The translations under genes were made by a program, and so were the position numbers. This document shows, one piece after another, positions 4,977-6,911 of a stretch of DNA of 17,319 nucleotides. The stretch comes from a virus (lineage: Duplodnaviria > Heunggongvirae > Uroviricota > Caudoviricetes): IMG/VR virus record IMGVR_UViG_2547132281_000005; one strand, 5' to 3'. Within the stretch, counting starts at the first letter, position 1; each line of letters begins with the position of its first letter. Below the pieces are notes generated by a model that saw only the letters and a list, made by a program, of their open reading frames with translations, searched no databases and was not told where the DNA came from.

Positions 4977-5326
4977 AGATTAGCTTTTTTTTGAATGTTT
5001 GGAGAGTAAAATGTTAGAACCACCAAAGAGTTATAATGAAATGTTGCCTATGCTCCATAAGGCGACTTTTATTACTACATTTATATTTTACCTATCATTA
5101 GTCATTTATGGCTACATGCCATTGGTTGGCATTAATGCCAAGTATATCCCCCCCGTTAAAGACTACGAGGAATTTATTAAATGGATATTAACCTTTGGCA
5201 TATTACCAATTGCATCTTCAGTTTTTTGGTCAGTAATTAGTGGAGCTTTAGATCTACATAATAATGTAGCAAAAATTATTGGAATAAGGAAGATGTGGGA
5301 TAGTCATTTAATTATTAAACCATTAG

Positions 5327-6521
5327 GGAAGGTGCGAATAAGTGGGGAAATTCTTCTCGGCTGACTCAGTCATTTCATTTCTTCATGTTTGAGCCGATTT
5401 TTTCTCCCGTAAATGCCTTGAATCAGCCTATTTAGACCGTTTCTTCGCCATTTAAGGCGTTATCCCCAGTTTTTAGTGAGATCTCTCCCACTGACGTATC
5501 ATTTGGTCCGCCCGAAACAGGTTGGCCAGCGTGAATAACATCGCCAGTTGGTTATCGTTTTTCAGCAACCCCTTGTATCTGGCTTTCACGAAGCCGAACT
5601 GTCGCTTGATGATGCGAAATGGGTGCTCCACCTTGGCCCGGATGCTGGCTTTCATGTATTCGATGTTGATGGCCGTTTTGTTCTTGCGTGGATGCTGTTT
5701 CAAGGTTCTTACCTTGCCGGGGCGCTCGGCGATCAGCCAGTCCACATCCACCTCGGCCAGCTCCTCGCGCTGTGGCGCCCCTTGGTAGCCGGCATCGGCT
5801 GAGACAAATTGCTCCTCTCCATGCAGCAGATTACCCAGCTGATTGAGGTCATGCTCGTTGGCCGCGGTGGTGACTAGGCTGTGGGTCAGGCCACTCTTGG
5901 CATCGACACCAATGTGGGCCTTCATGCCAAAGTGCCACTGATTGCCTTTCTTGGTCTGATGCATCTCCGGATCGCGTTGCTGCTCTTTGTTCTTGGTCGA
6001 GCTGGGTGCCTCAATGATGGTGGCATCGACCAAGGTGCCTTGAGTCATCATGACGCCTGCTTCGGCCAGCCAGCGATTGATGGTCTTGAACAATTGGCGG
6101 GCCAGTTGATGCTGCTCCAGCAGGTGGCGGAAATTCATGATGGTGGTGCGGTCAGGCAAGGCGCTATCCAGGGATAACCGGGCAAACAGACGCATGGAGG
6201 CGATTTCGTACAGAGCATCTTCCATCGCGCCATCGCTCAGGTTGTACCAATGCTGCATGCAGTGAATGCGTAGCATGGTTTCCAGCGGATAAGGTCGCCG
6301 GCCATTACCAGCCTTGGGGTAAAACGGCTCGATGACTTCCACCATGTTTTGCCATGGCAGAATCTGCTCCATGCGGGACAAGAAAATCTCTTTTCTGGTC
6401 TGACGGCGCTTACTGCTGAATTCACTGTCGGCGAAGGTAAGTTGATGACTCATGATGAACCCTGTTCCATGGCTCCAGATGACAAACATGATCTCATATC
6501 AGGGACTTGTTCGCACCTTCC
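5327..6521 (-). mobile_element. IS5 insertion sequence, complete, 1195 bp
   Basis: Terminal inverted repeats GGAAGGTGCGAATAAG (5327-5342) and CTTGTTCGCACCTTCC (6506-6521); 4-bp direct target duplication TTAG at 5323-5326 and 6522-6525; contains the transposase ORF. Confidence 0.95.
5473..6453 (-). CDS. insH: IS5 transposase InsH (326 aa)
   Basis: Protein from [36 protein letters not shown]... matches IS5 transposase as I recall it; the track ORF extends 12 codons upstream to 6489. Confidence 0.9.
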
Positions 6522-6911
6522 TTAGCAAAAATTGCAGGCGTTACGAGAAAATTAACTACTGATGAATCTCACAAGGTAATGAGTAAACTGTATTACCCAG
6601 AAGTTAAAGAGTTAAAAGACAAACATTACGTTGAACTTTTCTGGAACAAAGTTTATTACTTTTGGGTTTTCTTTGAACATACAGTAATCGCATTTGTTAC
6701 TATTTTAATAATAAGTATCGCCAAATTAACAAATATATTCTCTGTTACTGGCTCTTTAATTAATCTTTGGTTGTGGATTATTTCTCTTGTCGCATTTGAC
6801 TTCCTTATTTTCATAGCATCAGTTAAACCAAGAACAGAAAGCCAAGTAAGACAAATACCTGATAGCAAAATAAAAGAATTCTTTAACAATAACAATATTT
6901 TTTAAACGAGG

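Follow-up and report, generated by a model that had tools for sequence, protein, structure and literature searches.

An IS5 insertion splitting a YmfE/Kunado-like gene in a probable two-gene prophage cassette of an ETEC clone

The closest described relative of the gene analyzed here is ymfE of the e14 prophage of Escherichia coli K-12. According to a September 2026 preprint, the e14 locus is bound by H-NS and ymfE is silenced by it; when de-repressed, or when cloned with its own promoter, the gene protects against T5-like phages without blocking adsorption (bioRxiv 10.64898/2026.09.05.749240). The authors of the preprint reported predicted membrane-spanning regions in YmfE, suggested that the protein blocks DNA injection and renamed it Kunado; they mention neither ymfD nor a methyltransferase (bioRxiv 10.64898/2026.09.05.749240). 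The second known system of relevance is the insertion sequence IS5. Its target motif is YTAR, which occurs about 7 times per kb of K-12 coding DNA, and local hopping of IS5 together with IS-IS recombination is the usual source of deletions of the kind described below (PMC5009759). IS5 can also alter the expression of neighbouring genes. Activation of glpFK needs the 177-bp 3'-end region of the element, with a bend and an IHF site, and in the activation of fucAO and flhDC the ins5A promoter is distal to the activated gene (PMC2753651). The IS5 termini, unlike those of IS2 and IS3, gave no, or no strong, reporter expression, and in a chromosomal context IS5 modestly raised downstream expression (PMC5526668).

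We analyzed a 17,319-nucleotide stretch of phage DNA, hereafter the window, for which an earlier sequence-only reading had proposed that a complete IS5 with a TTAG target duplication splits a membrane-protein gene located upstream of a methyltransferase gene. The features of the locus are collected in the table. Direct reading of the sequence shows a complete element of exactly 1195 bp at 5327-6521, opened by GGAAGGTGCGAATAAG and closed by CTTGTTCGCACCTTCC; the terminal inverted repeats are 16 bp long and imperfect, of the form GGAAGGTGCGAA(T/C)AAG, with a single T/C difference between the two ends. An end-to-end alignment to IS5A of K-12 MG1655 contains five mismatches and no gaps (99.6% identity), so that the claim of a full-length element with intact ends is borne out by both termini and by this alignment. 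The transposase matches Pfam DDE_Tnp_1 (E 1.9e-35) and DUF772, and it scores 365 bits against NCBIfam transpos_IS5_4, the cut-off of which is 140. The G+C content of the element is 53%, compared to 31% for the gene that it splits. The element is an ordinary IS5 of standard behaviour, known in kind, and represents no new element type.

Table. Features of the interrupted cassette and of the IS5 element (window coordinates)
Feature	Coordinates	Strand	Remarks
5' part of the split YmfE/Kunado-like gene, codons 1-105 and first base of codon 106	5011..5326	plus	hydrophobic segments 1 and 2
3' part of the split YmfE/Kunado-like gene, rest of codon 106 to stop	6526..6905	plus	hydrophobic segments 3 and 4; joined directly to the 5' part in 145 complete genomes
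Truncated fusion ORF, 105 native residues and 12 IS5-encoded residues (GKVRISGEILLG), then stop	5011..5364	plus	117 aa
Left target-site duplication copy, TTAG	5323..5326		fits YTAR motif; single TTAG in the uninterrupted allele
IS5, complete, 1195 bp	5327..6521	minus	transposase gene antiparallel to the split gene; 5 mismatches and 0 gaps against K-12 IS5A
IS5 right inverted repeat (transposase 3' end), GGAAGGTGCGAATAAG	5327..5342		
insH (ins5A) DDE transposase, 326 aa, intact	5473..6453	minus	K274R is the sole difference from K-12 InsH1
IS5 left inverted repeat (transposase 5' end), GGAAGGTGCGAACAAG on the minus strand	6506..6521		
Right target-site duplication copy, TTAG	6522..6525		
YmfD-like class I SAM-dependent methyltransferase, intact, second cassette gene (most likely start)	6918..7571	plus	68-69% identity to K-12 YmfD; Pfam Methyltransf_12 and Methyltransf_23
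CTAA site joined to the IS5 left end in the SRR33774643 contig (L009)	8976..8979		6522-8975 deleted

The proposed TTAG direct repeats are present on both sides of the element, and the uninterrupted allele carries a single TTAG. Excision of 5327-6525 (1199 bp) makes TTA (L105, 5323-5325) abut GCA AAA ATT and restores one continuous open reading frame, exactly as had been read. The length of that frame had been given as about 233 aa; we find 231 aa from ATG 5011, which is also the start given in RefSeq for the intact allele, WP_000892866.1, or 235 aa from an upstream in-frame TTG at 4999. The comparison with related genomes that had been named as a check was carried out with a reconstructed query of 1475 bp (promoter region, membrane gene and methyltransferase, with IS5 excised), which was searched in 5,426 complete E. 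coli genomes. The segment was matched in 150 genomes, 145 of them at at least 99% and five at 80-90%, and several complete genomes were 100% identical to it. In NZ_CP019005, the intact frame is annotated as a single hypothetical protein of 231 aa, WP_000892866.1, and the next gene encodes a class I SAM-dependent methyltransferase. Alignment to one uninterrupted genome (L001) places window 3388-5326 at 7491-9429 and window 6522-11988 at 9426-14892; the two alignments share exactly one TTAG, and this is the empty site. The structure as a whole, i.e., the element, the 4-bp duplication and the empty site, is virtually certain. The two halves are one annotated gene rather than two unrelated ones, and this gene is homologous to ymfE.

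The split membrane protein has no family model in Pfam, NCBIfam or PADLOC, and its identity was established by direct comparison to K-12 YmfE, to which it is homologous over its full length (60.4% identity over 230 of 231 residues, E ~1e-107). A Kyte-Doolittle scan of the intact protein shows four hydrophobic stretches, at residues ~20-41, 58-80, 148-175 and 181-208, in agreement with the proposal that a membrane-protein gene was split in frame. The YmfE-like family is small and comprises 39 clusters at 90% identity, all of them in Enterobacterales. In an alignment of 13 family sequences, the sole invariant block consists of W96, I101, I102, P104 and L105; the insertion directly follows L105 and thus lies within this block, between hydrophobic segments 2 and 3. 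The native part of the truncated product breaks off at the best-conserved motif of the family, and segments 3 and 4 are missing; therefore, the insertion has very probably knocked out the YmfE-like gene. With the gene knocked out, any phage exclusion conferred by the Kunado-like window allele would be lost as well, on the analogy of an e14 protein for which anti-phage activity is reported in a preprint and to which the window allele is only 60% identical. The gene lies in an AT-rich islet (4500-9000) with a G+C content of 34%, compared to 47% in the rest of the window. If the cassette was already silent under H-NS, the insertion may have had little phenotypic effect.

Downstream of the split gene lies the methyltransferase gene, which is homologous to ymfD. 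Its start is most likely TTG 6918, located 12 nt past the stop of the split gene (6905) and preceded by GAGG at 6908-6911. The same start is used in the PGAP 217-aa model WP_001373963.1 in another genome, and the similarity to YmfD extends upstream of the alternative ATG 6978, the start used by PGAP in NZ_CP019005. A membrane gene followed by a YmfD-like methyltransferase on the same strand was found in all five of the other loci examined, the two genes being separated by 0-14 nt wherever the annotation uses the upstream start: in e14 of K-12, where ymfD comes directly after the ymfE stop; in a Providencia P2-like prophage, directly after ogr; in an Enterobacter P2-like prophage, in the same position as in Providencia; in Cronobacter; and next to a metagenomic homologue of 34% identity, the partner methyltransferase of which is 46% identical. 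Given the near-abutting genes on one strand, the conserved pairing and the TTG 6918 start, the two genes look like one operon, and an insertion in the first gene should therefore be polar on the second. Two other neighbours were considered as parts of the cassette and rejected. The second methyltransferase of the window, at 1296-1964, has no BLASTP match to YmfD or to the cassette methyltransferase and was not accepted as a cassette paralogue, and the gene with a SMEK domain is absent from the other five cassette loci.

The host element adjoins trpCBA-yciGFE and an ompW remnant, and it is identified as a Qin-like prophage because it contains sok/hokD, rem, DicF, dicB, an exonuclease and an integrase. 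Over the range compared, window 1-15,364 is 100% identical to AELE01000002.1, a sequence of the ETEC strain TW14425, which was isolated in Guinea-Bissau in 1996 (PMC4309559). None of the 5,426 complete E. coli genomes covers the IS5 left junction, and a 32-nt junction string had no exact match among the GTDB species representatives. The junction is found in the TW14425 draft assembly and in some 24 further contigs, in each case along with one and the same deletion in the prophage; public assemblies contain the 117-aa truncated product in 26 blocks. The deletion in question is seen at 3388/3389. To the left of 3388, the tail-fibre genes match their counterparts in other E. coli prophages at 100% identity; the joint itself occurs in no complete genome. 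Gene order and orientation at the joint fit an internal prophage deletion that would have taken the DUF968-RusA-antiterminator genes, which are present in an intact relative, and everything up to the tail-fibre gene. The tail-fibre protein created by the fusion is also recorded in 26 blocks, and every ymfE-like region visible there carries the IS5-truncated product. This joint occurrence in all visible places indicates that a single clone is fixed for the deletion as well as for the IS5 insertion. The suggestion that the insertion is recent is only partly upheld: the split frame and the methyltransferase show zero substitutions compared to intact alleles (100% identity), whereas the insertion is fixed in a clone, is seen in 26 blocks and was already carried by a strain isolated in 1996.

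Translation of the truncated product stops at 5364, about 1.5 kb before the start of the methyltransferase. Transcription from the cassette promoter would run through ~1.5 kb of largely untranslated RNA, made up of antisense IS5 and the gene fragment, before it reaches the methyltransferase. The action of Rho on untranslated RNA reduces downstream transcription. On balance, methyltransferase expression is probably much reduced by polarity of this type. A consensus scan of promoters and terminators was run over 4400-8000, and all its counts were at or below the shuffle expectation. No convincing intrinsic terminator was found in this range, in which one weak hairpin was seen at 5359-5371 (a count within the shuffle expectation); no plus-strand promoter-like site was found at 6300-6918, and the scan of 4400-8000 provided no support for an outward IS5 promoter. 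Rescue of the methyltransferase by such a promoter, as raised in the sequence-only reading, has little published support either, considering the reporter results for the IS5 termini (PMC5526668) and an activating geometry that is opposite to the one seen here (PMC2753651): in the window, it is the ins5A promoter end and not the 3' end that faces the methyltransferase. By analogy with the ability of IS5 to raise the expression of its neighbours in a chromosomal context, some methyltransferase expression is possible (PMC5526668, PMC2753651). The other rescue that had been raised, a restart at TTG 6507, was rejected. The only Shine-Dalgarno-like sequence there, AGGGA, lies one base upstream, which is poor spacing, and the product would be without half of the protein; at best, a fragment with hydrophobic segments 3 and 4 would be made, and transcription would not be restored.

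One of the records carrying the insertion shows a further change. In a contig of SRR33774643 (L009), the IS5 left end is joined straight to window position 8976, at ...CTTGTTCGCACCTTCC/CTAACTCTACCC, also written ...CACCTTCC/CTAACTCTACCC; it should be noted that this IS5-CTAA junction rests on a single short-read contig. The contig has lost 6522-8975 (2,454 bp), i.e., the 3' fragment of the gene, the methyltransferase and the SMEK-domain gene. The new junction, CTAA, is an IS5 target, and the deletion fits either intramolecular transposition or a local hop followed by IS5-IS5 recombination. It is an indirect sign that this copy of IS5 may be able to transpose.

Draft genomes are often misassembled at IS elements present in several copies, and the split could in principle be an artefact, with IS5 misplaced by assembly, or the flanks could be unrelated frames. 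No observation in favour of this was found, and it is hardly conceivable here: the gene is continuous and annotated in 145 complete genomes and is homologous to YmfE over its full length, both junctions are spanned in independent NCBI and Logan assemblies, and the target duplication is perfect. The single-gene empty sites, along with the spanned junctions in independent assemblies, refute this reading. Another explanation assigns a regulatory role to the insertion, in which IS5 breaks an H-NS-silenced AT-rich tract, or acts via its bent IHF-binding end, and thereby activates the methyltransferase and/or the SMEK-domain gene. The contrast in composition between the islet (34% G+C), the rest of the window (47%) and the element (53%) is compatible with this possibility, as are the H-NS binding of the e14 counterpart locus (bioRxiv 10.64898/2026.09.05.749240) and the reports that IS5 activates bgl, fucAO, flhDC and glpFK and raises downstream chromosomal expression (PMC2753651, PMC5526668). 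However, in the known activating geometry the IS5 3' end points toward the target promoter and the ins5A promoter is distal, which is the reverse of the arrangement in the window; the element lies within a coding sequence, not upstream of a promoter; its termini lack strong outward transcription (PMC5526668); and 6300-6918 holds no plus-strand promoter-like site. Regulatory insertion is thus very improbable.

The remaining question is whether the loss of the gene was selected. Under adaptive loss, a Kunado-like gene would be costly or toxic, or would block useful DNA uptake, and IS insertions in it would be recurrent and selected. Several observations point in this direction: an independent ISApl1 is found near codon 34 of the same gene in strain FXCREC035, an E. 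albertii allele breaks off into unrelated DNA 5 nt beyond the same TTAG, the clone is fixed for the IS5 allele, and in one sample the whole cassette was subsequently deleted. There is also precedent in the IS inactivation of CRISPR-Cas under selection (PMC10359306), and the toxicity of immune genes is argued in the Kunado preprint (bioRxiv 10.64898/2026.09.05.749240). Conversely, each of the 150 complete genomes containing the locus has a region that spans 80% or more of the query, and among the 30 matches listed only one is visibly disrupted by an IS. The split gene contains 21 YTAR sites in 696 nt, ~30 per kb; since it is so unusually rich in IS5 targets, neutral insertions are expected, and their fixation is explicable by hitch-hiking in a clonal pathogen. 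Furthermore, if H-NS silences the locus, there was little cost to remove. Adaptive loss is therefore unlikely, and a neutral insertion fixed by clonal descent is the simpler reading. An extended version of the selective account, in which Kunado-like genes are recurrent IS targets because of their cost and the H-NS-silenced islet was removed under selection step by step (the insertion, then the IS5-anchored deletion of the cassette and the SMEK-domain gene), with the linked idea that Kunado is a two-gene system that includes the methyltransferase, is a similarly doubtful proposition.

We consider it likely that a standard IS5 transposed into the first gene of a YmfE/YmfD-like prophage cassette in an ETEC clone. 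The element would have entered a TTAG within codons 105/106 of the gene that comes first in a two-gene cargo cassette, and this cassette is carried by a Qin-like (DicF/DicB/HokD) cryptic prophage in the ETEC clone that includes TW14425. An insertion in a gene with this composition and this density of targets needs no special cause. The resident IS5 would later have seeded further decay: in one sample, what was left of the cassette is gone, together with the SMEK-domain gene.

The insertion is a clean natural knockout of little importance in itself, and it can be used as a marker of the TW14425-like ETEC lineage. The natural Kunado-family null of this lineage and the intact allele, 100% identical over the 1475 bp in complete genomes, constitute a ready-made test pair, which could show whether the divergent allele excludes phages and whether the YmfD-like methyltransferase contributes. 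The published work on YmfE is extended by the finding that, in e14, Qin-like and P2-like prophages alike, the membrane gene is accompanied by a methyltransferase gene. The added value of the locus is in the disrupted gene of a newly reported family, the methyltransferase pairing, the natural null and an example of an IS5-anchored deletion.

Compared to ymfE-ymfD of e14, the cassette in the window has the same two-gene order, near-abutting genes and the position of AT-rich prophage cargo, and both proteins are homologous to their e14 counterparts over the full length (60% for YmfE and 68-69% for YmfD). The window allele encodes four hydrophobic segments, and membrane-spanning regions are predicted for e14 YmfE in the preprint. 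The differences are that the cassette resides in a Qin-like prophage rather than in e14, that the window allele is interrupted, and that the neighbour is a convergent SMEK-domain gene, whereas in e14 it is the divergent lit. The element agrees with K-12 IS5A/insH1 (IS5 family, IS5 group) in length, 16-bp imperfect repeats and the 326-aa DDE transposase, and shares with K-12 IS5 the 4-bp YTAR target duplication; it departs from IS5A only in its location and in five point differences. The deletion in the SRR33774643 contig resembles known IS5-associated local deletions in that it starts exactly at an IS5 end and stops at a CTAA target, and its end product is compatible with a one-step or a two-step mechanism. 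Finally, the insertion resembles those of IS1, IS5 and IS10 in cas genes, in which an IS in the coding sequence of a defence gene abolishes that gene and IS5 is found at YTAR sites. Selection was both applied and demonstrated in the experiments on cas genes, whereas for the window a neutral insertion is the simpler reading.

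The YmfE-like membrane-protein gene that is split by IS5 in the window is also broken in other genomes. In E. coli FXCREC035 (locus L004, 3114-4881), the same gene is cut after approximately 34 codons by ISApl1, a member of the IS30 family, another copy of which lies approximately 1 kb upstream; this interruption is independent of the IS5 insertion. The E. albertii GCA_027567775.1 allele (sequence P0037, 144 aa; locus L022, around 4321) represents a second breakpoint, nearly at the IS5 site: its homology ends 5 nt past the same TTAG, and the DNA beyond the break is unrelated, with no recognisable IS end there. 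Protein cluster P0023 (333 member sequences) is represented by a "partial" sequence of 182 aa that stops at ...SVTGS and matches the intact allele with 100% identity; this may reflect a common contig break in many draft assemblies, caused perhaps by a repeat or an IS near codon 182. In run SRR33774643 (locus L009, 4752-4790; L027 is the same contig), CTAA at window position 8976 is joined to the left end of IS5, and window 6522-8975 (2,454 bp) has been lost, including the 3' gene fragment, the methyltransferase gene and the SMEK-domain gene. This change, defined from one short-read contig, is an adjacent deletion anchored on IS5.

Features of the window with their positions and strands
Feature	Position	Strand	Remarks
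Second class I SAM methyltransferase, 222 aa	1296-1964	+	flanked by two tail-fibre-assembly genes
"IS009"	2062-2260	-	Rfam; within tail-fibre-assembly gene
Fusion ORF at the joint	2603-3550	-	5' end of small hypothetical gene and C-terminal part of tail-fibre gene
sok antitoxin RNA of hokD	4263-4437	-	Rfam
Methyltransferase, long model, 217 aa	start TTG 6918	+	one RefSeq genome
Methyltransferase, short model, 197 aa	start ATG 6978	+	another RefSeq genome
SMEK-domain protein, 299 aa	7886-8785	-	convergent with cassette
DicF sRNA	12732-12783	+	Rfam

Three Rfam matches in the window passed their gathering scores; those to sok of hokD and to DicF identify the prophage as Qin/dic-like. Two kinds of prophage DNA meet at a breakpoint at 3388-3389: window 1-3389 shares 100% identity with tail-fibre regions from other prophages of E. 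coli, the Qin-like early region matches from 3388 on, and the two matching segments share a 2 bp overlap. This joint, which was found in none of the complete E. coli genomes, appears to result from an internal deletion that removed the late genes and left the prophage cryptic. Left of 2041, inside a tail-fibre-assembly gene, the context in GCA_001911255.1 (locus L007, 1-7030; alr, dnaB, pspG, dusA, integrase and DinI) differs from that of the window, suggesting either recombination between the tail-fibre regions of two prophages or misassembly.

RefSeq annotations of different genomes disagree on the start of the cassette methyltransferase. The longer form is favoured, because YmfD conservation extends upstream of 6978 and GAGG lies six bases before the TTG. 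BLASTP gave no match between the second methyltransferase and either YmfD or the cassette enzyme. The N-terminal region of the SMEK-domain protein matches the PADLOC model Aga_REase-PNTD1-PNTD2 (E 1e-20); its gene is probably a separate cargo gene, since it is missing from the other cassette loci examined.

In Providencia and Enterobacter (loci L015, 3523-5350, and L017, 3302-5362), the YmfE-like/methyltransferase cassette directly follows ogr in P2-like prophages, a recognised position for variable cargo and defence genes. The cassette is present in e14, Qin-like and P2-like prophages and, therefore, moves between unrelated prophage types.
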